Shown here: positions 2 through 44,118 of the stretch, one piece after another
How the letters are laid out: each line of letters opens with the position of its first letter
Position numbering within the stretch: position 1 is the stretch's first letter
Virus record (IMG/VR): IMGVR_UViG_3300044849_000010
Span: 1 to 45,547 of that record
Direction: 5' to 3' (one strand)
Source of the DNA: a virus
Lineage: Duplodnaviria; Caudoviricetes
Length of the DNA stretch: 45,547 nt
Program-made: the position numbers and the translations under genes
The notes under the pieces: model-generated
The model's database searches: none
What the model was told of the DNA's origin: nothing
Seen by the model: the letters and a program-made list of their open reading frames with translations, nothing else

Positions 2-2407
2 GGCCCATGGACTTACCATTGCTTCGGATGCGGCACGCATGGCGACGTCGTCGACTTCGTTCGCGAGCGCTACGGCTACGACAACAACGGCGACGCGGCG
101 AGGTTCCTGATCGGAGAGGACACCCGCGCGCCAGTGTCGACGGCCGCCTACGTCGAGGCCCACAACCCCTATGAAGGGTACGAGATCACGCGGCCGCCAG
201 CCGACGCGGTCGAGATCGTCGCAGGCGTCCGCAGCCCGCCGCTCTTGAACCCGAAGCGCATCAGCGACACGACAGGCAAGCCGAAGCACGTCACCTATAC
301 GCCGTCCGCCGTCTACCCGTACCGCAACAAGAACGGCCAGCTTCTAGGCTATGTCCTTCGCGTCGAGTTTGACGGCCGCAAGATCACGCCCGGCATATGG
401 TGGACGAAGTGCGAGGCCAACGGCTTTGAGGGATGGGCTCATGGAAGCTATCCGTCGCCCCGCCCACTTTACGGTCTTGACCGGCTTTACGCGAACCCGG
501 ATCATCAAGTCCTCCTCGTCGAGGGCGAGAAGTGTGCCGACGCGGCATGCGTCTACATGGAAGGCAAGCGCGTCGTGCCCGTTACCTGGATGGGCGGTGG
601 CAAGGCGATCGAGAAAACCTACTGGAAGTCGATCGCCGGCCGCAGCGTCATCATCTGGCCGGACAACGACGCCGAGGGATGGAAGACTACGCTAGGCTAT
701 GCCCGTCCAGGAGGCGGATGGAAGCCCGGCCTCGTCGAGCTGCTCTACAAAGCCGGCGCGGCCAAGGTTAAGATCGTCGAGATCACGCCTTCATCCAGGC
801 CCGAGGGTTGGGATATCGCGGACGCCCTATTCGTTGACAAGCTGGACGTGAGATCCGTCGAGCTGTTGATGCGGGACCGTATCCGCGAGTGGACGCCGAA
901 GATGGCGGAGGATCACAAGCAAGCGCAAATTGAAAAGGAGATGCCGCATGGACCCGATAAGCAGGATGATGCAGGAGCGAGCCAGACTACAGCACGCGGC
1001 AGCAGTCGACAGGCTGACAGCGGAGCAGGCGCAGGCCAGGACGGAGCGGATGACGGCCGAGACGAGAGCCAACAACGAGCTATCCGCCCGACAAAGGTGG
1101 ATCGCCAGTCTGCCGCGAAAGAAGACGACGCTCCGCCGCCTGATGAACCTGCCGAGCGTCCCGTTGGGCGCGGCTACGAAATCACCGAGGACACCTGGAG
1201 ACAGCACCTCATAATGAAAGCCGACGGCGACGGCCTCAAGTCTACGTCGCTCCAGAACTTTACGCTGATCCTCCAGTATGAGCGCCGCTTTTCAGGCGTC
1301 TACGCATGGAACGAATTTGCGAAAGAGGTCTACCTTATGCGCCGTCCACCATGGGACATGGAGGGCGAGCTTAACCGCTGGCGGCCGCGCAAGATCACGG
1401 AGCCAGACATCACCGCAACAACTAGCTGGATGGAGTATTGTGGAATGAGCCCGAAAGTTTCTGACATGGGACGCGTCATCGTCCGCGTCGCCGATCACAA
1501 CAAATATAATCCCGTAGTCGATGCGATCGACGGCCTCAAATGGGACGGGACGCCGCGCGTCGATACATGGTTGAGCTACTATCTCGGAGCCGACCAAACC
1601 GAGGCTAACCGCATGTTCGGCCGGCGCTGGCTTGTCGGCGCGATCGCCAGGGCGAAGCAGCCCGGCTGCAAGATGGACAACATGATTATCCTGGAGGGGC
1701 CGCAAGGCCTCAAGAAGTCCTCCGCCCTCCGCGCGCTGTCGGACGGCCTAGTCCCGCATGTCTTCACCGACGAGATGAGCGACCCGAATTCGAAGGACGC
1801 GGCGCTCCAGATGCAGGGCGCGTGGATCATCGAGATCTCCGAGCTGGACAGCTTCAAGCGCGCCGAGGTCTCGCAGATTAAGGCGTGGCTTGCCCGCCAG
1901 ACCGATCGCCTCCGCCGCCCGTATGGCAAGATCGTCGAGGAGTTTCCTCGCTCGTGCGTGTTCGCTGGCACCGTTAACCCTGTAGGAAACAGCGGCTACC
2001 TGAAAGATCCGACAGGCGGCCGGCGCTTCTGGCCTGTCATGTGCAAGGCGATCGACCTGGACGCCTTGAGCAAGGACGCCCGGCAGCTATGGGCCGAGGC
2101 CGCCGCCTTGTACGCGGCCGGGGAACGGTGGTGGTTGACGCAGGAGGAGGAGGAGATTGCCTTTGCCGTCCAGTCGGAGCGCTACGAGGACGATCCGTAT
2201 AGCGAGCTGATCGACAACGCGCTTGCCATGACGACAGAGACCACCATGAACACCATTCTCGGTATCCTTGAGATCCCAATCCAGAACCGCAGCGTTATCA
2301 CCGCGCGCCGGATCGAGGCTCACCTATCAACGCGCGGATGGACGAAGGACAAAAGACCAGGAGGTAAGGTTTTTTATGTCAGACCCAAGAAAGAGGTTCT
2401 TGTCTAA
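2..2407 (+). CDS. DNA primase-helicase (CHC2 Zn finger C-half, TOPRIM, VirE/VapE-type P-loop ATPase); 5' truncated by window edge
   Basis: Frame is open from position 2 (GPWTYHCFGCGTHGDVVDFV), in frame with ORF 134..2407. TOPRIM motifs VLLVEGEKCADA and IIWPDNDAEG; Walker A EGPQGLKKS; IIEISELD; FAGTVN and DPTGGRRFWPV typical of VirE/VapE. Confidence 0.9.
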   Translation, partial: GPWTYHCFGCGTHGDVVDFVRERYGYDNNGDAARFLIGEDTRAPVSTAAYVEAHNPYEGYEITRPPADAVEIVAGVRSPPLLNPKRISDTTGKPKHVTYTPSAVYPYRNKNGQLLGYVLRVEFDGRKITPGIWWTKCEANGFEGWAHGSYPSPRPLYGLDRLYANPDHQVLLVEGEKCADAACVYMEGKRVVPVTWMGGGKAIEKTYWKSIAGRSVIIWPDNDAEGWKTTLGYARPGGGWKPGLVELLYKAGAAKVKIVEITPSSRPEGWDIADALFVDKLDVRSVELLMRDRIREWTPKMAEDHKQAQIEKEMPHGPDKQDDAGASQTTARGSSRQADSGAGAGQDGADDGRDESQQRAIRPTKVDRQSAAKEDDAPPPDEPAERPVGRGYEITEDTWRQHLIMKADGDGLKSTSLQNFTLILQYERRFSGVYAWNEFAKEVYLMRRPPWDMEGELNRWRPRKITEPDITATTSWMEYCGMSPKVSDMGRVIVRVADHNKYNPVVDAIDGLKWDGTPRVDTWLSYYLGADQTEANRMFGRRWLVGAIARAKQPGCKMDNMIILEGPQGLKKSSALRALSDGLVPHVFTDEMSDPNSKDAALQMQGAWIIEISELDSFKRAEVSQIKAWLARQTDRLRRPYGKIVEEFPRSCVFAGTVNPVGNSGYLKDPTGGRRFWPVMCKAIDLDALSKDARQLWAEAAALYAAGERWWLTQEEEEIAFAVQSERYEDDPYSELIDNALAMTTETTMNTILGILEIPIQNRSVITARRIEAHLSTRGWTKDKRPGGKVFYVRPKKEVLV
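948..1214 (+). CDS. Putative overprinted 88-aa helical protein nested in the primase linker
   Basis: AAGGAG at 935-940, 7 nt before ATG 948. Third codon positions are more GC-rich in this frame than in the primase frame over this stretch. Product is helical/coiled-coil-like. Confidence 0.55.
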   Translation: MDPISRMMQERARLQHAAAVDRLTAEQAQARTERMTAETRANNELSARQRWIASLPRKKTTLRRLMNLPSVPLGAATKSPRTPGDSTS

Positions 2408-4680: not shown

Positions 4681-4719
4681 ATCACTGCCAGCGAGCAGCT
4701 AACTCAAGGAGCTACCACA

Positions 4720-5595
4720 ATGCCTATCAAGGTCGAGACAGACGAAGAGTACCACGCTGGCGAAGGCGTATCGAAGTCCAAACTCTGGACGCTGGACAAC
4801 AAGACGCCCTTTCATGCCCGCTTCGGAGCGCGCAAGGAAACCAACGCTTTCGCTATCGGTAAGGCCGCGCATTGCGCCATCCTGGAGCCGGAGGATCTGG
4901 AGAACCGCTACACCAAAGGACCGGACGCGCGACGCAACTCCAACGAATGGAAGCACGCCGAGGACTTCGCCCGTCATGCCGGCACCACCCTCTTGAAGCC
5001 CGACGACTACGATATGGCGATGGTCATCCGCGACATGGCCGCCACCGTCCCGGAGCTGGAGCTTATGCGCCAGGGCGGTTGCACCGTCGAGACGTCGGCA
5101 TACCACCTCGACGAGGAGACGCAGACGCTCGTCAAGACGCGGCCGGACATCTACAACCCGACGCATCGGCTTATCGGCGATATCAAGAACATGGCTGACG
5201 CCAGCCCCGAGGCCTTCAAGCGCGACGTCGGCAAGTTTGGCTATCACATGCAGCACGCGCTTTATTCCGAGGTATGGGCGGCCGGCGCGGAGATGCCGGT
5301 TGATGGCTTCTTCTTCATCGTATTCGAGAAGTCGGACCCGCCGCTTGTCGCCGTCTATGAGCTGTCGGCGGCCGCGATCGCGGAAGGGTATGCCCGGTAT
5401 CGCTCCGCCCTCGCCCGCTATGCCGAGTGCGTTCGCACCGATACATGGCCCGGCTATCCGGAAGGCGTGCAGCAGATCGGCTTGCGCTACTACGACTACA
5501 AGCTGACGCCTCCGCCGAAGGAAGAGGAAGGCCAGTTCGCAGAGGATGACGACGCGGGCGAGGACGAGGCGGAGGTTGCTGCCGATGGAGAATGA
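4720..5595 (+). CDS. RecE/ExoVIII-like PD-(D/E)XK exonuclease
   Basis: ATG 4720 after AAGGAG; EEYHA..GVSKSKL, IGKAAHCAILEP, KTRPD..IGDIK, GYHMQHALY, FFFIVFEK; upstream of a RecT-like gene. Confidence 0.88.
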   Translation: MPIKVETDEEYHAGEGVSKSKLWTLDNKTPFHARFGARKETNAFAIGKAAHCAILEPEDLENRYTKGPDARRNSNEWKHAEDFARHAGTTLLKPDDYDMAMVIRDMAATVPELELMRQGGCTVETSAYHLDEETQTLVKTRPDIYNPTHRLIGDIKNMADASPEAFKRDVGKFGYHMQHALYSEVWAAGAEMPVDGFFFIVFEKSDPPLVAVYELSAAAIAEGYARYRSALARYAECVRTDTWPGYPEGVQQIGLRYYDYKLTPPPKEEEGQFAEDDDAGEDEAEVAADGE

Positions 5596-14206: not shown

Positions 14207-17200
14207 TTATTTGGCAGGCCTTGTTAGCACGATATCGCGAAGCTGGAAATCATCTTCCTCGATTGCCCTCCACACATTATCGACGGACGTCGCAAGCTGC
14301 CCGGTCGGCAGGTTGAACCAGAGGCCAGCCCCGTTGATGACCACCTTCGACGCCTTGCGCGCATCTGCCTCGCCCTCGACGATGTCGCCTACAAGCTCGA
14401 TCGGCTTAACGATCATATCGTTAAGCGTTCGCTCGATCGGAGTGAAGGAATAATCGAACCCGTTGTTGAAGTAGTTGGCGAAGTCGCGAGCGACAGGCAC
14501 GGCCGCGACGGGATAGAGCGCAACCTTGCGGAGTGCCCACTTCTCCCAATCCTCATCCTCCTCCGGACCCTTGCCCGTCAGCATCTCGCCGAGGAGCGCC
14601 GGCCCGATCGTCATGAAGACCTGACGCGCCAGGAGCTGCGGAAACTCGCGGACATTTCCGGCCTTGACCGCTTTTGCTGCATCACGGCCCCACGCCCGTT
14701 GGCGGTTGTAGTAGGCGGCAAAGTACGAATAGAACATGGTCACGAGCTTCGTCAGCTCATTGCGGCGCTGGAGCGCGGAGAGATCCTTTGCCCCGCCCGA
14801 ACCCTGAGTGAGGCGGACAACCTTGTCCGCGTGAGCGATCGCCCCTTCCTTGTCTGTCGGATACCTGGAGAGATGGTCGCGATAGGCGGCCATCCATGTC
14901 GGCACAGTCACGACGCGGTCGAGGTAGCCGATACCGTAGAAGGCGAAGCGGCGAGCCCTGTCGGCCGCCGACGTCGCGCCCGTCAGCTCGCGGAGGCGTT
15001 CCTTGATGTCGCGGTCAAGCGTCTGCTGCCGGAACTTCATCTCGCCGGACAGGCTGTCGACCTCGCGCCACATGGCGGCCGGGTTAAGGCCGAAGTCCTT
15101 GATCGCTCCGGCAAGGTGCTTGATCGGCACCATTTCCGCCGAGGACGAGATACCGGCAATCTGTGCCAGCATGGTCGAGACGCGGAAGCCCATGGCGACC
15201 ATCGTCGCCCGCGAACGGACGGAACGGAAAACCTTGTTGACCGCGTTGAGCCCCTCGTTGGGCTGCATGTCCTTCGCGATCGACTGGAGCCATGGCGTGA
15301 TTTGTTGATAGATCGCCTTGCCGTAGCGCGTCTCGATCTCGTTGCGGACTGCTCCGTTGGTGACGAACTTGACCGCGTCCATGATCGCCTCGCGGTGCGT
15401 CAGGTCATGGATGACGCCGTTGATGTGGTTGCCGATCGCGTCCAGGTCGAAGAGCATCGGCCGCGCGTACATCTGCGCACGTTCCTTCGTGAAGCCCCGA
15501 GGAGTGTCCGGCCGGAGATACGTGTTCTCAATGAAGAGATCCGCATTGGCGGCCGCGCGGTCCTCGACGTCTGCCGATCGACGCGGGTCATAGATGGCCG
15601 GATAATAGCCGCCCTTCATCTCCTTGCCCGTAGGCGTGACGAACTTGCGCGCCTCGACCTTCGGCGGCACGACGCCGGCAAGACGTTTCTGGAGCGCGGC
15701 GATCTCAGGCCAAAGCGAGTTGATGATGTCCCACACCTCTTGCACGGTTTCCCATTCCGCATCGTTGAGGTTGGCAACGGCGCGATCGAGGATCTCTTGC
15801 GTCCAGCCTTCACCCCGGAGCATCTTATCCAGGTTGCTCGCGTTGCCCATGTTGAGCGCGATCGCCATGATCTCGGAGCGCCGGAACGTCTGCGCCACGC
15901 CTGGAATAGTGATCCGAGCGGTCAGGCGATCCTTGTCAAGCTTCTGGAAAGCCATGGCGATCTTGGCCGCGTATTCAGCCCGAAGCTCGTTCTCGCGCGC
16001 CTCTGCCTTGGCGATCGGCCGCCAGATGTAGCGGTTGAACGGCCCGTTCACGTCGCCGCCATCCATCCAGTCGAACACCTGTTCCATTTTCAACTGCGAC
16101 GCTTCCAAGCTGCGAGCCGTCTCCAGCGCGAGCATGACCGGCGTCGGGTTGCGAGTGCCGGGTTCCTTCCGCTTGTCCTGGTGAGCCTCCAGGGCGGCTA
16201 GCATCTCGTCTCGCGCGCCGAGGAACTCGCGTTGTTCCTTGTTGGAGAGGAGCTTGTCCTTGAGCCGGCCGAGATGCTCGATGTTCTTGACCGCGTCGCG
16301 AACGGCAAGGAGATCGTCAACCGTCATCTCTTTGTACGGCTTGCGGAAGGCGTCGCGGCGGAGGACGTCCGGCACGTCGACGATATGACCTTGCGCCTCT
16401 TGCTCCTGTATCCAGGCGGCGAGGCTGTTGCGGCGCTGTGCATCCTTCAAGGAGATCGACTTGCGAAGGTCGAAGCGTTCAAGGACGCCCTCGATTTGGT
16501 CGAGGTATTCAGGATCAATGCCCTTCGGACGCGTCCTGCCGGCGAACTTGTTGAGGTAGCGGACGGCGCTCTCTGTGTCCTTCTCCGCCTCGCGCGCCTC
16601 GACGGCCATGAAGTGATTGAGGACTTGCCGTTGCTTCGCGGAGACGGCCGCCTTCCAGTCGCCGGCGATGATAGCCTTCTCCACCTCTTGCGCGGCCCGA
16701 AGGTTCGCATTCTGGTAGAGCTTGACGCGGACGGCCTCGCGAATGTTCTTGCCCCTGACGGCTTCGCGCGCCACCCGTTGAGCATCCTGTTTCCGGAGCT
16801 TGGTAGTGACTAGCCCCTTCTTCATCAGGACTTCCATCTCCGCCATGAGCAATTCGCCGGTAGCGTCATTGTCGATAGCGGCCGAAACCTCACGAGCGCG
16901 CGCCACAGCGTCACCCATCAAATCGCCGAAGCGTTGGCGCATGCGAAGGTCTGTTTCTTCGACGATCGCCCGGTTGAGCGGCCGCGCGGACATGATGTTC
17001 GTGAGCATCTCGTGGCCGGACGGATATCCGAACATCTCGGCGAGGCTGTCAGCGTGCAGGCCATCGGCCGCCCGGTAGAGAGGCGGAACGCTCTTCGGCA
17101 TCTTGAGCAACGCGCCCTCGCCCATGACCTCGACGATACTGTCTCGATCGAGATAGACCCGCTGCATGGTCTCCGGCAGCATTGTGGTCTTGCCGGTGCG

Positions 17201-20200
17201 GAGATAGTTGATGACCTGATAGACCGGCAGGCGGCCAAACTCTGTCGCTACCTGCTCGCGGATCTCGCGCTTGGCATTGCGCCATTCGGTCGACGTCTCG
17301 CGCCGCACGTCCTGGAGCATGCGCGCCGACAGCTCTCGCGTTGCCTTCTCGACGGCGCGGCCGGCGACCTCGACGTAATCCTTCCATTGAGCCGGCGACA
17401 TGCCAGCCTCTTCCGCGCTCGCGAATTGCGGGCGGAAGTCGGAGCCGGTCTGAGCAAGTCGGATCTCTTCATCAGTGGCAACGAGGCGATCCATGACGCC
17501 CCGGATCTTGTCATTGATCGGGACGTTGAGATTACTCACGGACTGGTAGACGAAAACCAGCCATGACCGGAAACGTGAGAATATCCCCGCGACTTCGTTG
17601 GACGGTGCTTTACCTTCAAACAGGTACGCCTCAAACGAGCGGGCGAACTTCTCGTGAGCCTCGACCGAGATGGCCGCGTCATCAGTGATACCGAGATATT
17701 CCTTGGCAACCAGCCAGTCGGCCGAGACTGTCCCTGTGCCGCCTTCCTGGACGGCGAGATCCCGGAACACCTCAAGGAAGAAGTGCCCGCTCTCGTGCAG
17801 GAACGTCGAGGGGTTGGCGGCCTCAAACATATTGATGATCGTCCGGCCCTCGCCGAACTGGATCGAGCCACGCTTGACGCCGGCAGCGTCCTCGCCTTCC
17901 TGCGTTCCTTCCTGGAAGAGGATGCGCTGCTGCTCGCTGGCTGCCCGGATGGCTTCCGCCCGTGAGCCCTCAACGCCAGGATCATATTCGACGACGGGAA
18001 CGCGAGCATAAGTCAGCACGTCGCGGGTTTCCTTCGGAGCGTCCGATGGGATGACGGCCGCCTTGAACTCGCTCAATTCAACGGCGCGCTGTAGCTTCGC
18101 CTCGAAATATTCGGTCGGCATATTCGTGAGCTTGTCGAGGAACCTCGCCGCCGCCTGCTTCAAATCATCCGGCAGGTCTGTGTAGTATTTGTCGAGGACA
18201 GTCACGCCACGGCTGGCGACTTCCTTCAAGTGTTCGGAGAACGTGTCGAGGAAGCCATAGCCTCGCTGGCTTGGCATGAACTCTTCAAAGCGGCCAGCGA
18301 GAACAACGAACTCGTTGTCCACCTCTTCCTTGAGTGCCTGCATTGCCTCGCGGGAGATAAGGTCTCCGCGTGCCGCCTTGATGGCCGCGACGTTCTTGAA
18401 CTGCCGCGCGACGTTGGAGCGGATCGACGCGACGCCATAGTTAAAGCCCTCGCCATCGCGGAGCTTCTTCTTGAGGATCTTGACGACATTGTCCAGCGTG
18501 TGCGGCAGGTACTTTATGTCGCCGCTTGCGGTCTCTGCCATGACCGTTTCGCCGGAGATGACGGAGCTGAAATTCTCGTCTATCCATGCGGAGAACTCTT
18601 CCTGCTGCCAGGAGATCTGATCGCGCAATTCGTACCGAGCGGCCGACCTGTCGATGCCTGGACGCTTGGAGATGCTTATTTCGCTTTGGATCTTCCGGAT
18701 GACGTCGCTTCGGATTTCTCCATCCTTGCCGTAGTACCATCCACGGATATCAGCCTCAGAGAAATCGTCACGCGCATCAAGGTTGCGAGCAACGTCAAGG
18801 TCGATCGCGGCGCTGATAGCAGCGACCGCTTCCGGTTTTTGCAGGACTTCGTAGACCGTATCGTACTCGTTGACGAAGCTGGCGATCTCCGGAGACTTCT
18901 CCAGATAGTTTGTTGCCGCCTTCATTTGAGGCAGCTCGATTTCCTGTCCAGTCTCGCGCAGGTAAGTGAGCTGCACGGCAGAGCTGTTGCGGAACGCCTC
19001 AAGTCCCTGCCGCTCAACTTCGTTGTTATCCAGCTCGCCAGAAAGGACATGACCGAGATCTTCGGATGCCTTGCTCAGTTTCTTCCAAGCCTTGTTCATC
19101 TCCTTCGTCGCGATCTTGTAGCGAAGGGTCGGATAGCGAGGAGAGTAGACGTCAGCGTTGAAAACCTTCGATGCGCTGTCTTTGCGCGGATCTATCATGT
19201 CAACGTCGCCGAGAAGAGTGATCTCGCCGAAATTAGTCAGAGGAGCCTCGACGGACGAGATCGCAACGGACGGAACGGCCAGCCCCCGGATCTTGTCGGC
19301 ATGCAAGAGATTGGCAGAGGTAAGATTGTGCTGGACAATCATGTTTGGAACTGCGGCCTGATACAGTGCGCCGGTATTCGGATCGTCGGCGATAATACGC
19401 TCCAGCTCCGCGCGGATGTCGTCATCCGTCATACGGTTAGGATCGAGGCCGAGACGGTCCAGCTCGTCGGCGAATGTTACGAGAGCCTCCGCCCGCTCTA
19501 CGGCAGGATCGCGCGTCACTTGCGCCTTGAAGCGTTTCGTTCCGCCCATCTCTTCGGCGATCGCGTCGATCAAATCGTTGGCAGTCGGGCGATCTTCAAA
19601 CTCCGGGAAATATCCCTCCTCCCACATCTGGCGCGCGACGTCGTCGGCCGAGTATTGGTTATCGCCTCCGGCCAGCATGGACGCCTGTCCAGCCGTTCCC
19701 TTGCGGATGACGCCCTTCGGTGCATTGAGGGACGCGAGATCGCCTCCAGCGTCCTCTATGCCGCCACGCGCCTTGATGGCGTCAAGGAGCGACGCGCCCT
19801 TGCTCTTCTCAACGCGCTTGCGGAGAGGATCGACCGCGCCCTTGCGGATTGCCTCCAGGGAGATGTTGAGCCCGTCGACAGGCTTGTATTCGTTGTCCCA
19901 CCCTGGAATTGCGCGGCGGATCTCAAAACCATATTTCCGATATACCTCGCCAGGATCTTGACCAGTGCGATCGCCCATCACGCGGAAGAACGTAGAATAG
20001 AGCTTTGCGTATTGCTCCGCCTGATCCGGGACGAGGCCGGCATTCATGGCGCGATCCTTCACGTCGGCATGGATCTCCTCGACCGCCGTGACGGCCGCCG
20101 TCGTGGTCAGGTAGTCGCGCTCCGCCTGTGTCGCGACCTCTTGAGCCGCCTCCGCCCATGCCTCATTGAAGGCGTTCGCCTCGTTCATGTCCATACGGTC

Positions 20201-21835
20201 AGGATCGAGCTTGACGAAATCGCGGATAGCCTGCCCGATCTCGGTCCCGGCGATCGACGAGTAGTAGACGTCAATCGGGATCTCCATATCCCGGCCGGTG
20301 CGCGATGCCTCGTTGTATTCGTCCGTGATGCCTATCTCTGCGGCGTAAGCTCCAATCTCCTCGCTAGTCTGGAAGAATGTCGAAAAGGCCGTTGGGTTAA
20401 CATAGACGGTCTTGACCGGGCCATTTTCGGTAAGAGTGCGGACAACTTCCTTGGCCTTTTCGGGTAGACGCGCATTCAGCTCATTCCCTTGTGCATGCTC
20501 GTTGAGCGCCTGGATAACGGCCGCGTCGCTCGACGCTTGACGGGCGCGGCGGACGTCCAGGCCGAGGCGAGTGCCGGAGAGAGCCGGCCCCATGATCGTC
20601 ATGGTCTGGAGCGTCTGTTCAAAGGTTTCGGCCAGCCGGCCGGTGATGTCGTCGGAGGACATGAACGCGAAGTCCGCGCCCTCTCCGTTCGCCATGCTCT
20701 TCGCCATCTCGCCGGCAAAGATCTGGATGCCCTCTTGCAGGACTTCCGTCGTCACCTCTGTCGCGCCGGACTTGGCAATGTTCTGCGCAAAGGTCTTGAG
20801 CGCGGCCGCCACGGTCGGACGCGCGATCGCAGCTTTGACACCGTCGACCGTCAGATGCCCGGCGACCTTGTCGAGGCCCGGCACGAGCTTCGCCATGGCC
20901 TGGAAACCGATCGTCTCCAGGATCGCGCCGGCAGCGCCAGAGATCAACGCCGCGCCCTTGGCAACGTCCTGATCCATCGGACGGCCGTCCGCGTCCTTCA
21001 TGTTCTTGAACTCGTCGAAGGCAAGGCCGGACTGCAAACGGAACGATGCCTTGAGCTGGCCGGCGACAGCGCCGACCTTATAGCCAGCGGCCGCGCCGGC
21101 AGGAACCGTCAGGACTTCCTCCGGGAGAGCGACTTGCGGCCCGAGCTGGCCGGCGACGGCCGCGATCGTTGCGCCGCCGATCGCGCCCTTTATGCCCTGG
21201 TCAACGCCACCAAGGAGCGTCTCGATCATATTCGGGAGCTGCTGGAAAGTGCCCGCCCAGCCCTTCTCAAGCCAGCTATCCGCGCCGAAGGTTCGACCGT
21301 CGCGGCCTTGAGACATGAGATCGGCCGCGCGGATCTGCTCGCCCGAAGCCGTTCCCATCAATTCAGCATAACGCGCATTGGCAAGGTTCACGTCGGCGCG
21401 GCCGGATTTGAATGCCTGCCCTGCCGCCAGGGCGAGCCACTTCATGCCGGAGAACTGGCGAAGCTCGTCGATCTTGATCGCGTCGGCATTGTCTCCGGAG
21501 GCGTAGAACTGACCAAGGACGGGATCAGCATCGAAAAGCCGCTGCGCGTCCTGGATGCCCTTGAACGACTTGAGGCGCTCGCGATTGCGGCCGACGAAGT
21601 CGACAGGCACGCCGAACGTCTTGGCAAGCTCCGTATCTTCCGCATAGCCATCTGGATTGGCGCGCTGCCCACGGACGGCCGCGATATACCCTTGCTCCTG
21701 CGTCTTGGCGGCCTCGCGCTGGAGTAGCTCGCCAAAGATCGGGTCTTGCTCTTCCGGCTTCTCCAGCTCCGGAGACGGCGCGAACGTGCCTTCCTGCACC
21801 TCGCCAAGCATGCTGTCGAAGATGTCGTTTGCCAT
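14207..21835 (-). CDS. Giant internal virion/ejection protein, polyvalent-protein-like, with HExxH motif (2542 aa)
   Basis: ATG 21835 overlaps the upstream TAA; occupies the T7 gp16 position; STFLHESGHFFL...HEKFARSFEAYL zincin-like motif. Confidence 0.8.
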   Translation of the reverse strand: MANDIFDSMLGEVQEGTFAPSPELEKPEEQDPIFGELLQREAAKTQEQGYIAAVRGQRANPDGYAEDTELAKTFGVPVDFVGRNRERLKSFKGIQDAQRLFDADPVLGQFYASGDNADAIKIDELRQFSGMKWLALAAGQAFKSGRADVNLANARYAELMGTASGEQIRAADLMSQGRDGRTFGADSWLEKGWAGTFQQLPNMIETLLGGVDQGIKGAIGGATIAAVAGQLGPQVALPEEVLTVPAGAAAGYKVGAVAGQLKASFRLQSGLAFDEFKNMKDADGRPMDQDVAKGAALISGAAGAILETIGFQAMAKLVPGLDKVAGHLTVDGVKAAIARPTVAAALKTFAQNIAKSGATEVTTEVLQEGIQIFAGEMAKSMANGEGADFAFMSSDDITGRLAETFEQTLQTMTIMGPALSGTRLGLDVRRARQASSDAAVIQALNEHAQGNELNARLPEKAKEVVRTLTENGPVKTVYVNPTAFSTFFQTSEEIGAYAAEIGITDEYNEASRTGRDMEIPIDVYYSSIAGTEIGQAIRDFVKLDPDRMDMNEANAFNEAWAEAAQEVATQAERDYLTTTAAVTAVEEIHADVKDRAMNAGLVPDQAEQYAKLYSTFFRVMGDRTGQDPGEVYRKYGFEIRRAIPGWDNEYKPVDGLNISLEAIRKGAVDPLRKRVEKSKGASLLDAIKARGGIEDAGGDLASLNAPKGVIRKGTAGQASMLAGGDNQYSADDVARQMWEEGYFPEFEDRPTANDLIDAIAEEMGGTKRFKAQVTRDPAVERAEALVTFADELDRLGLDPNRMTDDDIRAELERIIADDPNTGALYQAAVPNMIVQHNLTSANLLHADKIRGLAVPSVAISSVEAPLTNFGEITLLGDVDMIDPRKDSASKVFNADVYSPRYPTLRYKIATKEMNKAWKKLSKASEDLGHVLSGELDNNEVERQGLEAFRNSSAVQLTYLRETGQEIELPQMKAATNYLEKSPEIASFVNEYDTVYEVLQKPEAVAAISAAIDLDVARNLDARDDFSEADIRGWYYGKDGEIRSDVIRKIQSEISISKRPGIDRSAARYELRDQISWQQEEFSAWIDENFSSVISGETVMAETASGDIKYLPHTLDNVVKILKKKLRDGEGFNYGVASIRSNVARQFKNVAAIKAARGDLISREAMQALKEEVDNEFVVLAGRFEEFMPSQRGYGFLDTFSEHLKEVASRGVTVLDKYYTDLPDDLKQAAARFLDKLTNMPTEYFEAKLQRAVELSEFKAAVIPSDAPKETRDVLTYARVPVVEYDPGVEGSRAEAIRAASEQQRILFQEGTQEGEDAAGVKRGSIQFGEGRTIINMFEAANPSTFLHESGHFFLEVFRDLAVQEGGTGTVSADWLVAKEYLGITDDAAISVEAHEKFARSFEAYLFEGKAPSNEVAGIFSRFRSWLVFVYQSVSNLNVPINDKIRGVMDRLVATDEEIRLAQTGSDFRPQFASAEEAGMSPAQWKDYVEVAGRAVEKATRELSARMLQDVRRETSTEWRNAKREIREQVATEFGRLPVYQVINYLRTGKTTMLPETMQRVYLDRDSIVEVMGEGALLKMPKSVPPLYRAADGLHADSLAEMFGYPSGHEMLTNIMSARPLNRAIVEETDLRMRQRFGDLMGDAVARAREVSAAIDNDATGELLMAEMEVLMKKGLVTTKLRKQDAQRVAREAVRGKNIREAVRVKLYQNANLRAAQEVEKAIIAGDWKAAVSAKQRQVLNHFMAVEAREAEKDTESAVRYLNKFAGRTRPKGIDPEYLDQIEGVLERFDLRKSISLKDAQRRNSLAAWIQEQEAQGHIVDVPDVLRRDAFRKPYKEMTVDDLLAVRDAVKNIEHLGRLKDKLLSNKEQREFLGARDEMLAALEAHQDKRKEPGTRNPTPVMLALETARSLEASQLKMEQVFDWMDGGDVNGPFNRYIWRPIAKAEARENELRAEYAAKIAMAFQKLDKDRLTARITIPGVAQTFRRSEIMAIALNMGNASNLDKMLRGEGWTQEILDRAVANLNDAEWETVQEVWDIINSLWPEIAALQKRLAGVVPPKVEARKFVTPTGKEMKGGYYPAIYDPRRSADVEDRAAANADLFIENTYLRPDTPRGFTKERAQMYARPMLFDLDAIGNHINGVIHDLTHREAIMDAVKFVTNGAVRNEIETRYGKAIYQQITPWLQSIAKDMQPNEGLNAVNKVFRSVRSRATMVAMGFRVSTMLAQIAGISSSAEMVPIKHLAGAIKDFGLNPAAMWREVDSLSGEMKFRQQTLDRDIKERLRELTGATSAADRARRFAFYGIGYLDRVVTVPTWMAAYRDHLSRYPTDKEGAIAHADKVVRLTQGSGGAKDLSALQRRNELTKLVTMFYSYFAAYYNRQRAWGRDAAKAVKAGNVREFPQLLARQVFMTIGPALLGEMLTGKGPEEDEDWEKWALRKVALYPVAAVPVARDFANYFNNGFDYSFTPIERTLNDMIVKPIELVGDIVEGEADARKASKVVINGAGLWFNLPTGQLATSVDNVWRAIEEDDFQLRDIVLTRPAK

Positions 21836-24732
21836 TATTTCCCTGCCTTCGCGCGCTTGAGCCATTCCCGGTAGAAGTTCGCAACCTCTTCGGTGGAAGC
21901 CGGGCGGCCGTAGGATCTAGCTAGACCCTGCCGTATCTTGGCGTCAAGTGCGGATGGCGGAGATGGAGCGCCGCCGAGGTCGACGCGGACCATGTCGTTA
22001 TACATGGCAACCGCCTCCTCCTCGCCTGGAGGAGCCGTCGTGCCCCAAATCTTGCGGTAGACCGAGACGACGGCCGGACGGATCTCCGGAGCGATATCGT
22101 CGACGGTTTCGGCCGTGTAGAACTTGGAGCGCTGCTCCGGCGTCAGCTCGAAAGCGCGGGCCTTGTCGTCGGAGATCAAGCCGGTCCCGGCAATTCTGCC
22201 CTCAAGCAAGAGATCGTCAACCATGGTCTGGATCTCAAGGCCAGTCGGCTCCTTGCCTGACGTCTCGACGTGCGCGGCAATCTTGAGATCCAGCGCCCGG
22301 TTGAGTGTCGCCATACGCATGGCGTCGTCGGGCTCTTTGCCTGGATCGAGGCCGAGGATGTTTTGCGCCTCGCTAACGATCTGCGTCCTGGTCCGGCTTG
22401 CGTTCTCCAGCGCCTTGCTTGCGTTCGGACGAACCAGCTCCGCCTGCTTATCGGCGAACGCGCGGAGATCACCACCCGACAGCTTGTCAGCGAAGTCGAT
22501 CAGGTCGACGGACTTGAACTCTTCCGGCGTCATGTTGACGAGCTTGATGTATGTCGCGTCGTCTGTCTTGTCGTCGCCGCCTGGAGCAAACTTGCTCTCA
22601 AGAGTTATGAGCTGAGATACGCCCTCGCTGCCGATCTGCTCCAGGATGAGAGGATCAAAGTCGCGGACCTTCTGCCCGCCGATGATGCCGCGAAGGACTT
22701 CCTTCTTGAGCCCGTCGATCTGCGCCTTGCCGGCCGCCTGCTGCGTCTTGATCTGATCTGTAATCTGGCGCTCCGCCTCCGCCAGCTTTACCGGGTTGTC
22801 GGCATAGATCTCGCGGACGTGCGACAGCGCGCCCTCAAGCGAGGGCTCCGCGCCGACAGTGAACGGCGAGACGGTCTTTGTGTAGAGATCCGACGCGCTC
22901 GCCGCCTGCGGCATAAGCTCGACGAGGCCGCTTACCTCGATGTCGGACCAGGCGCTTTCAATCCGCCCCTGTATCGCCGCCGCGTCCGTCGTGGTCTGGC
23001 CTCGCTCAACGCGGCCGCCCTTGGCAGGCTCGACGACACGAGCGCCCTTGCGAGCTTCCGCCGTCTCTATGTGCCACGGCTCATAGGACATAGGGAACGT
23101 GAGGCCGTACTTCTCCGCGTTCGCATGCACCCACTCGCGAACCTCTTTCGGAGCCGCCGAGAACCGGCCGCCGTTCCAGCCGAGATCCGCCGCCACGCCG
23201 TGATTGTGCTTGCTTCCGCCTGGACGAGCCACCCACTTGCCGGACTTGTCGGAGGCGTCCCATAGCTGTTGCTGCCGCTCGATCGAGCGCGCTCCGGACA
23301 TGATGTCGAGGCCGGCCTTCACATTGTCAGGAGCTTCGGCGATCATCGCGGCGAGGCGATCCGACATATCGGTAGACAGCCCGTCGACATGGTCCGGCCC
23401 ATGCTGTTTCTGGAGCCGTTCCTTGAGGAACGCCTTGCTGTCGCCGTTGTAATATTTCTTCGTCGTTCCGTTCACAGCGCCTTGAATATCGGCCGAGGTG
23501 TCGCCCTGGATCTCGACGCCACGATAAGCGGCCATGACCTTTTTTACATACGGAAGCGTCTCCTCCATCTTCGGGAGGACGGTATAGTCCCGGCCCGAAT
23601 TGAGGAACTTGACCGCATTCGCCGGCCCGGCGTTGTACGCGATAAGCGCCGCCTCCAGGTCTCCGCCGAACTTCTTTATCTGCGTCCCGAGGTACGCCGT
23701 ACCCATGCGGACGTTCGCGCTCTTGCCGGCCGGCGTCTGCCAGTATTCCTGGAGCTGGCTGTCATCCATCTCCGCGACGTGCTGTAGCCCGAGGCTCCTC
23801 GCCACCTCGCGCGCCGTCTCCGGCATGAGCTGCATGAGCCCTGCCGCGCCAGCCTCAGAGACAGCATCGGCGCGGCCCTCGCTTTCCGCGCCAATGACAG
23901 CGCGCACGACGTCAGCGGCCGGGCCGGAGCCAATGGCCTCCTCGACGGTGGTCCGAACCTCGCGGATATTGGAGATCGCGCCGATCAGCTTTTGAGCCTG
24001 CGCGTGATCCGTGCCGCTCACCTCGCCCTTGTGGCTCTCGTAGTAGTCGAGCGCCTTGCCTGGATCGTCTTGCGCCATGCGCTGGACAACCTGCAAGTGA
24101 AGCGCCGAGACGCTTTGACGCTCCAGTTCAGACACAGCCTCCGGAGGAAGTCCGTCCGGATTGGCGCGGATCGTCTTGCGGGCAAGGTCGAAGACGTTGC
24201 CGAGCGCGTCCGGGTTGTCGTAGCTGGCGATCGCGTCGGCTTCCAGGCCGGACAGCGCCGCCGTCTTGGCCGTGGTGCGGACTGCCTGCCGCTGTGTAAA
24301 CTCGTGCTTCTCGACATTGTCGAGCATGCTGTTTTCGTATTGCGTCCAGGTATTCTCAAACGCGGCCTTCTCTTCCGGCGTCTGGAAATTGCCGGATTGC
24401 TCCTCGCGGATCTTCTTGAGATCGGCCGCGACGCGATCGCTCGCGCCGTCAGCGTTGACGCCGGTCTGCTCCATGATGCCGCCAGGGCCGTAGAGCTTCT
24501 CACGCATGGTATCGGCGGCCGAGTTGGTAGCGTTCAGGATCTTCGCGGCCGCGTCCCGCTGGCGATCGCGCTCCTCGATCTGGAGCATATTGCCGCCAAC
24601 CTGCTGCAAGGCGTTGCCCGCCTGCGTCATGGCGCGAGCCTGCATGCCCCCGAAGTCGTCGGCCGAGACCTGGGGCAAGCGCTGCGGCTGCGTCTGCCTC
24701 GTGCCGCCTGGATCATAAACGGGAAGAGCCAT
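21835..24732 (-). CDS. Internal virion protein with lytic transglycosylase (SLT) and M15 peptidase domains
   Basis: AES..AVSEAGAAGLMQLMP..GTAYL..ALIAYNAGP (SLT); SGARS..QQQLW..SKHNHGVAADL..EPWH (M15). Confidence 0.88.
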   Translation of the reverse strand: MALPVYDPGGTRQTQPQRLPQVSADDFGGMQARAMTQAGNALQQVGGNMLQIEERDRQRDAAAKILNATNSAADTMREKLYGPGGIMEQTGVNADGASDRVAADLKKIREEQSGNFQTPEEKAAFENTWTQYENSMLDNVEKHEFTQRQAVRTTAKTAALSGLEADAIASYDNPDALGNVFDLARKTIRANPDGLPPEAVSELERQSVSALHLQVVQRMAQDDPGKALDYYESHKGEVSGTDHAQAQKLIGAISNIREVRTTVEEAIGSGPAADVVRAVIGAESEGRADAVSEAGAAGLMQLMPETAREVARSLGLQHVAEMDDSQLQEYWQTPAGKSANVRMGTAYLGTQIKKFGGDLEAALIAYNAGPANAVKFLNSGRDYTVLPKMEETLPYVKKVMAAYRGVEIQGDTSADIQGAVNGTTKKYYNGDSKAFLKERLQKQHGPDHVDGLSTDMSDRLAAMIAEAPDNVKAGLDIMSGARSIERQQQLWDASDKSGKWVARPGGSKHNHGVAADLGWNGGRFSAAPKEVREWVHANAEKYGLTFPMSYEPWHIETAEARKGARVVEPAKGGRVERGQTTTDAAAIQGRIESAWSDIEVSGLVELMPQAASASDLYTKTVSPFTVGAEPSLEGALSHVREIYADNPVKLAEAERQITDQIKTQQAAGKAQIDGLKKEVLRGIIGGQKVRDFDPLILEQIGSEGVSQLITLESKFAPGGDDKTDDATYIKLVNMTPEEFKSVDLIDFADKLSGGDLRAFADKQAELVRPNASKALENASRTRTQIVSEAQNILGLDPGKEPDDAMRMATLNRALDLKIAAHVETSGKEPTGLEIQTMVDDLLLEGRIAGTGLISDDKARAFELTPEQRSKFYTAETVDDIAPEIRPAVVSVYRKIWGTTAPPGEEEAVAMYNDMVRVDLGGAPSPPSALDAKIRQGLARSYGRPASTEEVANFYREWLKRAKAGK

Positions 24733-25701: not shown

Positions 25702-28063
25702 AAACGTACTCCATCGTCAGCCCCAAGATGTTCATCGGAAGAGGATAGTCCTGAATAAACATCATGGGAATGTCGTTGTCCCAATTCTCCCAACTGTCGA
25801 TTTCAAACGATCCGCTCTTGAGATCCGGAGGCGAGTAGTAATCCTCGTCATCGCGCGAGAGAAGCTCAACAGCGGTCTCCTCCGTCTGCCCCACCTTGAC
25901 GCCTCGCGTGCGGTCGAAGCGCGCGTAGATAGGCCCGGTGGCCTTGAGGACGCCGTTGTCATCCCGCGCCGTGTTGACGAGGTCGAGCGTCTCCATGAGC
26001 GAGCGGTAAGGCAGGCCGACGCTTATGCGGGCATAGGCGCGAGGGAAGGCGGGAAGAGCGCCGTCCGTCACAACAAGATCGTCTAGCTCGACGCCGTCGA
26101 TCACGTAGCCATCGGCGAGGACGGTGACGCGGCGGCCTTCCAGATGGTCGAGGCCTGTCACTTGCGAGATGCAACGGCGAACGACGCCGGCCGTGTAGAA
26201 TAGGCCCGCGAGATCCGTCGTGTCGACAGCGTCTCCAGGCTCCCACTCATCGCTCACCGTCGCATGCTTAAGGCGGAGGTTGTTAGCATCGACCACCTCG
26301 ACAGTATAGCGGCCGTCGATCGAGCCAGCCCTTTGATCGTCGCTGTCGAAGAATGACGTATTGCGAATGTCGACCTCGTCGCCGGCCGTCCAGCCGTGCG
26401 CCGTCAAGGTGATGACCGTCTCCGCGCCAGTCGTGACGGCCGAAACGGTGCGAGGCTCGTCATAGGAAAGGGCGCTGTCCATGAACAAAGCGCTCTCGAC
26501 TTCGGTGAACTCGCGATCCTCCATCATCTCGATATACTTCTTCCACACTCCGCCAATGCGGCGCTCGACGATGAAGTATGGAACGTCGCGGCCATCCTCC
26601 GGGACAACGGCGACGTCATAGAAGCGGCCGCGCGTGTCGTGCTGGCACCATCCCCAAACATCATGCTCTTTCAGGTACGTAAAGGACAGGCAGTTCCCGT
26701 CATCCATCACGCACCAGATAACACCATAGGGCTTGGCAGCATACGCCCAAGCCTTGATTGTGCGCCCCTCAAACAGGTCGCGGGCGAGGAGCGTCTTGTC
26801 CGAGGCGCGGTACCCGTCGACGTCAAGGTTGTATTCCATCTCGTAGACGATGCGCTTTGTGCGGTCGGCGAATAGGATCGTTTCACCGGCCAAGATCGGG
26901 CGGATCGTTTTTGCAGATCCATAGCGGCTTTGCGGTTCAGGAAGGACGTCCTCCGGAGTGATGACAAATCCATCCCGACCCGTCACCTTCCATTCCCCGG
27001 AACGAGTGAAGACAATAAGGCCGTTCTTGATTGAGAGGATGTGATAGATATCCTGCTTCCGTTCCGCCGCAAGGGTGAAGTCGAAGCCGTCGCTCTCCCT
27101 GGACGGAGACGAGCGCGCGAAACTACGATAGTTCCCGGATTGCGTCATATATATCGTCTGCGGATTGTTCAGCGTGCCAGCAAAGACGCGCCTCTGCTGT
27201 GCGAAGGTAACAACGGATGGAAAGTTGCCTGCCCCGACGAATGGGTTGTATCCGTCCTGCGGCGTCGACGTGAAGTCTGGCGAGATATTGTTGTCCTTGA
27301 ACGTTTCGTCAGGAGTGCGGCCGATACTGCCATATACTCCATTGCTCGCCTTGTAGACCACATATTCGTCAGCGCCAGGACCGGACGCGGGAGGGTCCCA
27401 AGTGATGGTATTGTAGTTTTTGTCGTACCCAAGGACGTTGCCTGCCACAACAGGCCCGGTCGGGAGGCTTTCCTCCCCATTCCCAGAGATCGTCGAGATC
27501 TTGTAGAAATGGTTGATAGCCTCCTTGTCCTCGCCATATCCAGTGTAACCCGTGGTGGCTGCGGCGGCCTGATTTGTTGGGGCTTGGACGTCCGTGACGA
27601 AGCTTACCGTCGCGAATTGCCAGTTCGTGGCTGAGAGACGCCGAAGCTCGCGGACGTCCGTCAAAGGGTGGACGATCGTCGCGACGTCGTTCGATTGCTC
27701 CGTATAGATTTCGCGAACAATGTTGCTGCCGTATGGAGATGCGACTTCATAAGGAGCGCCTCCGCCAGCGTCCACAAATCCGCCACGGCTTACCGGGCGC
27801 ATGTAAAGGTGCCCGAACTCCATTAGGAACGCATCATCCCCGGCCGCCTCAAACGTCATCAGCCTCCCTTCATTCGTGCTGTCCTTGACCTCACCCACAA
27901 ACCGAAGGCCCGGCCGGTTCATAGCCCCACCAGTCGCGGTAATCATCATGTTCTCAGCACGCTTTAGCGACGTCAGTTTGCGGGCGATATCGTCGCGGCC
28001 GTAGAGAGCGCGAGAGATAATGCCGCCATTGAACGAGTATTGAGTTGTCCGATAATCGCTCAT
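25691..28063 (-). CDS. Tail tubular protein B (nozzle)
   Basis: SFNGGIIS..LYGRDD, PSVVTFAQQRRVF, VGLPY, QDYPLPM; 790 aa; synteny. Confidence 0.85.
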   Translation of the reverse strand: MSDYRTTQYSFNGGIISRALYGRDDIARKLTSLKRAENMMITATGGAMNRPGLRFVGEVKDSTNEGRLMTFEAAGDDAFLMEFGHLYMRPVSRGGFVDAGGGAPYEVASPYGSNIVREIYTEQSNDVATIVHPLTDVRELRRLSATNWQFATVSFVTDVQAPTNQAAAATTGYTGYGEDKEAINHFYKISTISGNGEESLPTGPVVAGNVLGYDKNYNTITWDPPASGPGADEYVVYKASNGVYGSIGRTPDETFKDNNISPDFTSTPQDGYNPFVGAGNFPSVVTFAQQRRVFAGTLNNPQTIYMTQSGNYRSFARSSPSRESDGFDFTLAAERKQDIYHILSIKNGLIVFTRSGEWKVTGRDGFVITPEDVLPEPQSRYGSAKTIRPILAGETILFADRTKRIVYEMEYNLDVDGYRASDKTLLARDLFEGRTIKAWAYAAKPYGVIWCVMDDGNCLSFTYLKEHDVWGWCQHDTRGRFYDVAVVPEDGRDVPYFIVERRIGGVWKKYIEMMEDREFTEVESALFMDSALSYDEPRTVSAVTTGAETVITLTAHGWTAGDEVDIRNTSFFDSDDQRAGSIDGRYTVEVVDANNLRLKHATVSDEWEPGDAVDTTDLAGLFYTAGVVRRCISQVTGLDHLEGRRVTVLADGYVIDGVELDDLVVTDGALPAFPRAYARISVGLPYRSLMETLDLVNTARDDNGVLKATGPIYARFDRTRGVKVGQTEETAVELLSRDDEDYYSPPDLKSGSFEIDSWENWDNDIPMMFIQDYPLPMNILGLTMEYVYGG

Positions 28064-42809: not shown

Positions 42810-42970
42810 AGGATCTCGGCACATTCACCAAGGCCAGGACCGCACCACCGGCCGGTGCATTCACCAACGCTATCGTCATCGGCCTCCTCCTCGTCGGGAT
42901 CTGCTGCACCTATGCGGCCGTCAGGATCAACGAGGAGAGCAAGGCTCAAACCCAAGGAGAAAGAGTATGA
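42806..42970 (+). CDS. Single-TM small protein (54 aa)
   Basis: AIVIGLLLVGICCTYAAV; ATGA overlaps at both ends. Confidence 0.65.
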   Translation: MKDLGTFTKARTAPPAGAFTNAIVIGLLLVGICCTYAAVRINEESKAQTQGERV

Positions 42971-44118
42971 CGCAGTTCGTTACCGTCGAGGGCCGGACCC
43001 TCGCCAAGGCGTTGAAGATCGCCGTCGCGATCGTCGAGAGGCGCAATACCATCCCCATCCTGTCAAACGTCCGGCTCACTCGCCGGCTCGCGCGCCTGGA
43101 GATTGCATCCACGGACCTGGACATCATGCACGTCGGCGCGATCGACATGATCGACGCGGAAGGTGATTTCGACATCACCGTTGCAGCTCACCTCCTGGAG
43201 AAGATCGCCCGACTCGCCGGCCCGGCACCGATCCGGATCGAGATCGTCGAGGAGAAGCACACGCGATCTCTCTACAAGGGTAAAATTGTCGAGCAGCAGG
43301 AATACACACTCACAAAGGCCCGCCTCCTGGTCGCGGACGGCGACGCCGCCTACACGCTGGACACCTGCCCGCCTTCCGACTTCCCGGAGTTGACCGTCAA
43401 CGAGACCAGGACCGTCGCGTCATTCACCAACGGCCGCGCCGCCGAGCTGATTTCGATCGTCGCGCCGTTCATCTCGACCGAGGAGACCCGCTATTACCTC
43501 AATGGCATCCACATGACTGCGAACCACATGGAGGCCACGGACGGGCATCGGCTTTGCCGTGTCGAGTTTGACAAGGAGCAGACGACTGCGCTGGACGTCA
43601 TCATCCCGCGCAAGGTTTGCGCCTTGCTACTGAAATTCGCCGGGCCGGATCTTGTGCTTGAGGTTTCCGAGACGCAGACGCGCATGGTTGCCAAGACGGC
43701 GGCCGGCCGCTTCACGTTCAAACTGATCGACGGAACCTACCCGGACACCGTCCGCGTCATCCCCAGGCGCGAGGACGTCAAGTTCACATTTGACATCGGA
43801 GCCGCCAACATGCGAACGGCCGTCGAGCGGGTGATGACGGTCAAGACCGATCACAGCAAAGCCGTCCGCATCCACGAGCAGAGTGGAGAGATTGCTGTCA
43901 CCGCCAGCAATCCGGAGATGGGAGACGCTACCGCCAGGGCATTCGACGCATGGCCGGAGGACGCCATACCGTTCGGCCTCAACGGCAAGTATCTTCTCGA
44001 CATCCTCCCCAAGACCGGCCGCGTCAAGATCCACGGCAGCGAGGCCGGAGCGCCGTTCCTCGTCGACGTCGAGGGCCAGGAGGATACTACCCGCGTCATC
44101 ATGCCTATGCGTGTCTAG
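42967..44118 (+). CDS. dnaN: DNA polymerase III beta sliding clamp homologue
   Basis: ERRNTIPILSNV, STDLD, ISTEETRYYLNGI, ATDGHRL, IIPRK, KLIDGTYPD..RVIP, GLNGKYLLDIL, VIMPMRV. Confidence 0.93.
   Translation: MTQFVTVEGRTLAKALKIAVAIVERRNTIPILSNVRLTRRLARLEIASTDLDIMHVGAIDMIDAEGDFDITVAAHLLEKIARLAGPAPIRIEIVEEKHTRSLYKGKIVEQQEYTLTKARLLVADGDAAYTLDTCPPSDFPELTVNETRTVASFTNGRAAELISIVAPFISTEETRYYLNGIHMTANHMEATDGHRLCRVEFDKEQTTALDVIIPRKVCALLLKFAGPDLVLEVSETQTRMVAKTAAGRFTFKLIDGTYPDTVRVIPRREDVKFTFDIGAANMRTAVERVMTVKTDHSKAVRIHEQSGEIAVTASNPEMGDATARAFDAWPEDAIPFGLNGKYLLDILPKTGRVKIHGSEAGAPFLVDVEGQEDTTRVIMPMRV

Follow-up and report, generated by a model that had tools for sequence, protein, structure and literature searches.

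A putative overprinted gene in the linker of a phage primase-helicase

An 88-codon ORF nested in the +1 frame of a phage primase-helicase gene (bases 948-1214) is very probably translated, judging from its sequence and those of its relatives, and comparative evidence supported it well as a real nested gene. On balance, we favor the reading that 948-1214 is a translated overprinted gene in a recombining hypervariable linker slot, and that its product, a small accessory protein, would act on the host. The ORF has its own initiation signal and an open alternative frame inside an older gene, and the arrangement is limited to a sub-clade (8 of 11 close genes vs 4 of 89 distant genes). Constraint on the new-frame sequence also appears to be present, as judged by +1-frame hydrophobicity, conservative substitutions in a homologue, and codon-position bias, the last of which did not contrast significantly with the helicase domain.

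The nested ORF and the surrounding primase-helicase gene

The window, i.e., the whole stretch of DNA analyzed, is a virus record of 45,547 bases (IMG/VR IMGVR_UViG_3300044849_000010; Duplodnaviria; Caudoviricetes) with portal, capsid, and tail genes of podovirus type. It also encodes a protein of 2,552 aa that has LPD22 and PBECR5 nuclease domains (14207-21865, minus strand), one of 965 aa with SLT and VanY domains (21835-24732, minus strand), and a sliding clamp of the phage's own (42967-44118, plus strand). The record begins inside the primase-helicase gene, the 5' end of which is missing; the frame from base 2 to base 2407 comprises 801 codons. Pfam and PHROGs placed a Zn finger and primase at the N-terminal side and a VapE helicase at the C-terminal side, and the best structural match of the model was the PriRep1 helicase (7pds). 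The AlphaFold model was ordered up to residue 313 and had pLDDT values below 50 at residues 316-390. The ATG at 948 sits in codon 316, the first disordered codon, and the coincidence of the nested ORF with a disordered linker, as described in the earlier note, was thus borne out.

Table 1 Features of the primase-helicase gene and the nested ORF in the window.
Feature	Position	Strand	Basis or remark
Primase-helicase gene: Zn finger, TOPRIM-type primase, disordered linker, VapE helicase	2..2407	+	ORF, Pfam, PHROGs, AlphaFold, fold match
Shine-Dalgarno (SD) sequence AAGGAG	935..940	+	Primase codons Lys-Glu, end of last primase-domain helix; -8.7 kcal/mol
Linker between primase and helicase, disordered (primase-frame residues 316-390)	947..1171	+	AlphaFold
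Nested ORF, 88 aa and TAA (1212-1214), +1 to primase	948..1214	+	ORF list, frame analysis
Variable core of the putative nested gene, codons 2-57; strongest dual-coding signal	952..1119	+	Comparison with nearest relative, recoding
Conserved 3' flank; nested tail here looks primase-frame-governed; TAA overlaps in-frame primase ATG at 1214	1120..1214	+	

The start signal was found as previously described, with an SD sequence 7 nt upstream of the out-of-frame ATG. The hexamer occurs nowhere else within bases 1-2500, and just one of the starts listed for 17 long genes has a stronger SD energy. An in-frame ATG at 941 was rejected as the start, its spacing from the SD sequence being zero. SD-stimulated frameshifting into the +1 frame was also considered; neither a slippery run nor an in-frame stop was seen at the site by eye, and retention of the ATG favors initiation over such frameshifting. 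The predicted product is basic (net charge +8, pI 11.7) and has no membrane segment. Residues 3-53 were predicted to form a single helix, which is weak evidence as the peptide was folded from a single sequence. A complex prediction with the full primase-helicase and nested residues 1-66 scored 0.00, the fold of the partner being uncertain in at least one run, and is given no weight for or against binding. Among sequencing runs, no RNA dataset was listed as containing the sequence, which says nothing about expression.

Two further features overlap this region. A 126-codon antisense ORF with a GTG start crosses the same linker (827-1207, minus strand) and had no PHROGs match. A sigma-70-like match (9/12) at 1188-1215 on the plus strand overlaps the end of the nested ORF; two such matches were found in 600-2700 against 0.5 expected, which is a weak signal.

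The GC3 contrast claimed in the earlier note was reproduced frame by frame: GC3 was 76% in the nested frame (68/89) and 57% in the primase frame over the same stretch (51/89; 27/51 in 948-1100), compared with 78-80% in the primase frame elsewhere (252/315 upstream and 308/397 downstream of the nested ORF). The high nested value is uninformative by itself because the third position of the nested frame is the first position of the primase frame, which is GC-rich in any linker; it was also 0.73-0.88 in L086, L166, and L010, whose linkers have no nested site. Similarly, the +1 frame was free of stops in 89% of synonymous recodings of the window linker (P=0.89), because stops in this frame need primase Leu, Ile, Val, or Met codons, which are absent from linkers. 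Both properties, which had been put forward as an argument for a gene, are therefore by-products of linker composition, and the basic charge of +1 peptides is probably also partly automatic in acidic linkers. In a codon model of the window genome, the nested core scored -0.11, +1 shadow frames -0.92, and ordinary genes 0.86; codon usage in the nested frame is thus intermediate and not gene-like.

An SD sequence of -7 kcal/mol or lower followed by an ATG and at least 45 codons appeared in 37% of recodings of the window primase gene (P=0.37). Across 10,570 codons of 18 window genes, five nested SD and ATG sites were found, and GC3 of the surrounding gene dropped at 948 only. The other four, all in long genes (441-695 on the plus strand; 14413-14556, 19756-19932, and 26707-26973 on the minus strand), had no GC3 shift and are likely due to chance. 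The earlier conclusion that the nested protein is real was well supported by the comparison with relatives described below; the open frame and the nested GC3 prove little alone.

Nested sites in related primase-helicases

Scans of viral, metagenome, and genome contigs yielded 287 matching ORFs, from which 100 fused, non-duplicate primase-helicases were kept. Eleven of these, including that of the window, formed a close group (best segment at least 49% identical), and the other 89 were classed as distant. Among isolated phages no close relative was found (best about 36%), and plasmids gave none. Three additional pattern scans through viral contigs yielded no further member of the clade; the linker of L268 (41%) has no SD and ATG. 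In one distant relative (L003, 36%), the primase frame is cut short by a stop within the primase domain (4700-4800) and the remainder starts in another frame with an ATG overlapping the stop (TAATG), which may reflect a split gene, a frameshift, or an assembly error.

The same thresholds (SD of -7 or lower, ATG, and at least 45 codons), applied to the +1 frame of the linker, defined eight of the 11 close genes as carriers, with an SD sequence and ATG followed by 55-88 codons at the start of the linker. Seven of the eight starts fall within nine aligned codons; that of L087 lies 14 codons earlier, inside a helix. Outside linkers, the criterion was satisfied twice in 8,163 codons, and in the distant genes four of 89 had a site in the linker, their linkers being shorter and their borders noisy. 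The primase residues that encode the SD sequence differ from phage to phage. Under synonymous recoding, the probability of a site was 0.06-0.37 per carrier, so that 1.46 were expected against eight observed (joint probability 4e-7, or 2e-6 without L251, which shares its site with the window by descent). For the three non-carriers of the close group this probability was 0; in other words, all eight linkers able to form a site have formed one. The conservation check proposed earlier accordingly came out in favor of the ORF: close relatives keep the SD sequence, the ATG, and the open frame, and the interruption by stops that was to count against a gene was not seen.

Two other measures were compared between carriers and non-carriers. 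GC3 of the primase frame dropped in the linker by 0.13-0.30 in carriers and by 0.01-0.10 in the four non-carriers tested. The hydrophobic fraction of the +1 frame exceeded that under recoding (P<0.02) in six of eight carriers and none of nine non-carriers; in the window it was 0.23 vs 0.09 (P=0.0007), and the excess was absent in L089 and L087.

We also used relatives known as protein only, examining the best 74 of 120 homologues, of which 64 could be anchored. In these sequences, the primase residues allow an SD and ATG at the linker start in 34 of 40 long linkers, where shuffling predicts 17.4, and in five of 24 short linkers, where it predicts 7.6. Several short plain linkers (P0012, P0019, P0020, P0025, P0029, P0031, and L086) have a PQG motif at the linker start. 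This motif can spell the SD sequence in carriers, and in short linkers it would be either a remnant after loss of a nested gene or a pre-adaptation.

The substitution pattern was investigated in 10 pairs without a shared member, taken from 18 pairs whose linkers are at least 45% identical; primase-silent changes are invisible in such protein-only pairs. Primase substitutions at codon position 1, the nested wobble position, and position 2 numbered 55:27 in six carrier-type pairs, three of which were so classed by composition alone, and 13:22 in four plain pairs (p=0.004). The bias did not differ significantly from that in the helicase domain of the same carrier pairs (60:42, p=0.29). On a tree of 88 proteins with the linker removed, a proxy label (linker long and rich in G/R/S/D/N/H) changed 15 times (12 forced; 28 when shuffled). 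The label is thus clustered but patchy, and sister lineages differ.

Peptide diversity, core replacement, and competing explanations

The eight carrier peptides have Met1 as their sole common residue. Seven of the eight have a pI of at least 10, and none contains Cys or a membrane segment (maximum 19-residue hydropathy 0.88 or lower). No carrier peptide matched a Pfam or PHROGs family at the curated cut-off, and PHROGs gave no match below E=0.02. Below the Pfam cut-off, the L251 peptide (1845-2024) weakly resembled OmdA (E=0.0049) and the L254 peptide (1489-1656, minus strand) the start of the LuxR/GerE helix-turn-helix (E=0.047). The window and L251 peptides aligned weakly with each other (36% over 56 residues, E=0.03 among eight peptides). 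Neither viral contigs nor a word-indexed protein search gave a useful match for the window peptide, and the ESM Atlas gave none for the window and L251 peptides. The L253 peptide retrieved itself alone; on a short contig, a gene caller had chosen exactly this nested ORF.

Searching 1.84 billion proteins with the window peptide returned two matches, a weak one in a repetitive protein and P0122, a protein-only singleton from a 1,048-base contig, which is identical at 42 of 64 residues (66%). In the helix, its 12 substitutions averaged BLOSUM +0.58 compared with -0.49+/-0.42 for neutral change (P about 0.01), although P0122 was found by score, which favors conservative changes. No new Pro or Gly was introduced in the helix, and the tail substitutions averaged -0.20. 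The last 25 residues of P0122 could be encoded in the +1 frame of P0002, whose primase is 0.34 changes per site from that of the window.

The core was replaced as a block in the nearest relative, a 45,960-base contig (run X2) that is likely the source of P0001. Its flanks are about 95% identical to the window (11 of 352 bases differ upstream and 32 of 579 downstream); between sharp junctions at 951/1120, 174 unlike letters replace 952-1119 with the frame kept. Run X4 has yet another unlike sequence before 1121. The nearest primase is 98% identical outside the linker (tree distance 0.024), yet it has a different core, while a distant backbone of the P0002 type likely carries a related one. This combination would point to recombination in the conserved flanks. 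The protein alignment leaves room for the P0001 core being a diverged homologue instead of an unrelated sequence.

From these results we propose the following model. Ribosomes would in all likelihood start internally on the primase mRNA at the SD sequence and ATG 948, yielding the basic 88-residue protein. Its working part would be the predicted helix of approximately 50 residues, and the tail would be read-through to the first stop. The primase probably needs nothing more than a stop-free hydrophilic spacer here, so selection would act mainly on the +1 frame, and the conserved flanks would permit allele swaps from one primase backbone to another. The chances are about even that the product takes part in host interaction (counter-defense or takeover) through protein or nucleic-acid binding. 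A host-interaction role is suggested by the diversity of the peptides, their patchy presence, and their co-expression with replication genes, and the host-takeover factor offered in the earlier note fits the variability of the peptide.

The other role offered there, that of a replication cofactor, is unlikely, as is that of a regulator; either would bind the primase-helicase or the fork and be co-expressed through nesting. A cofactor should track the conserved enzyme; instead, the core is replaced although the primase-helicases are 98% identical, the eight peptides have nothing but Met1 in common, and three of 11 relatives have no ORF, with sister lineages differing (15 label changes on 88 rows). 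On its side are the location in a replication gene, the basic and predicted helical peptide, the weak alignment of the window and L251 peptides, and the precedent of RSF1010 mobB, which lies inside mobA/repB and acts in mobilization, the process of its own host gene (passages of PMC2200642).

We consider it rather improbable that the cores are ordinary independent small genes taken into the linker together with their ribosome-binding sites, their -1 frames happening to be stop-free. The sharp junctions, a textbook ribosome-binding site in L254, and the weak OmdA and GerE resemblances would agree with capture. However, no stand-alone homologue was found in the searches: the sole real match of the window peptide has a primase-overlap tail, and the L253 peptide matches itself only. 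In addition, codon usage is not gene-like, and the SD sequence lies within conserved primase codons, outside the swapped part. Capture concerns the origin of the cores and is compatible with a host-interaction function.

A chance shadow frame, in which an acidic, fast-evolving linker rich in G/R/D/S yields an open +1 frame, SD-like purine runs, and ATGs that are never translated, is improbable. It would account for the open frame, for the window site taken singly, and for the four other sites in the window genome, and a relaxation of codon bias would by itself be enough to raise T at third positions. It does not fit the presence of a site in all eight linkers capable of one, the larger GC3 drop in carriers, the SD sequence made from different primase residues in different phages, or the conservative substitutions in P0122.

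Finally, the idea that the +1 ORF is a translational device, by which re-initiation at TAATG (1212-1216) gives a helicase-only protein and the peptide is incidental, is very unlikely: four of eight carriers stop at most 2 nt from that ATG and RSF1010 repB initiation needed re-engineering once mobB was removed (passages of PMC2200642), but in the other four carriers the stop comes 11-16 codons earlier, the long-linker members P0015, P0022, P0036, P0038, and P0046 lack the Met, a start there loses the nearly invariant W399, R400, H402, and L403, the non-carrier L086 has the same +1 stop, and the change in the peptide itself is conservative in P0122.

Returning to the proposed overprinted host-acting gene, one position in an essential gene would encode different peptides in most relatives (eight of 11 with DNA; the signature in 34 of 40 long linkers). 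Nested linker ORFs would then form a reservoir of small phage proteins overlooked by gene finders and hidden from annotation, and a second frame may have a part in shaping the "disordered linker" sequences of these primases. With the nested ORF lost in lineages whose linkers are short, and blocks exchanged between phages that are nearly identical, the clade would provide a natural series on de novo gene birth and turnover. More tentatively, the linker might be a gene nursery, in which start signals are spelled anew by different primase residues, unrelated small +1-frame proteins arise de novo over and over, and the useful ones pass as cassettes from one primase backbone to another; an essential replication gene would then contain host-interaction proteins by the dozen that annotation has missed. 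In listings of open-licence papers, we found no report of a nested-gene arrangement in VapE primases.

Comparison with known overprinted genes

Out-of-frame genes within viral genes are well known. Papillomavirus E4 lies out of frame in the interdomain hinge of E2, T7 genes 4.1 and 4.2 overlap the primase-helicase gene 4, and lambda Rz1 and phiX174 E are out-of-frame lysis genes whose products have a lipoprotein cysteine or a membrane helix. To our knowledge, known overprinted genes are single fixed events. For E4, T7 4.1/4.2, Rz1, and phiX174 E, the gene is fixed and the product conserved, unlike a slot with unrelated alleles, and the eight carrier peptides differ from Rz1 and phiX174 E in having neither Cys nor a hydrophobic segment.

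In the IncQ plasmid RSF1010, mobB lies in mobA/repB in another reading frame and, as in the window, is a small gene inside a bifunctional replication gene that includes a primase (as described in part of PMC2200642). In contrast, the surrounding gene in the window is a phage Zn finger-primase-VapE helicase and not a relaxase-primase, and the window product has no detected family homology (no Pfam match) and differs from one relative to the next. The case for coupling to a downstream start is weak here: four of eight carriers stop at most 2 nt from the ATG, and the Met is not conserved.

The ALTO/middle T ORF of polyomaviruses is overprinted on the helicase-containing large T and is highly variable (passages of PMC4446436 and PMC5852106). 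It resembles the nested ORF in being a de novo, clade-restricted ORF over a helicase-containing replication protein, outside the helicase domain, and in its extreme sequence variation and two-fold size variation (same passages). ALTO is a eukaryotic, largely disordered protein in which short motifs are conserved and the C terminus forms a membrane anchor, whereas here we find a bacterial SD start, a predicted helix, neither a membrane segment nor a common motif, and the replacement of a block between phages that are almost identical. Overlap constraints are regarded as milder where a protein is disordered (part of PMC8227390).

Judged from sequence, the nested ORF is like mobB, ALTO, E4, T7 4.1/4.2, Rz1, and phiX174 E in layout and appears to be a member of none of their families. 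Overprinting itself is already known; what is probably distinctive here is a hypervariable, exchangeable overprinted slot across a phage clade.
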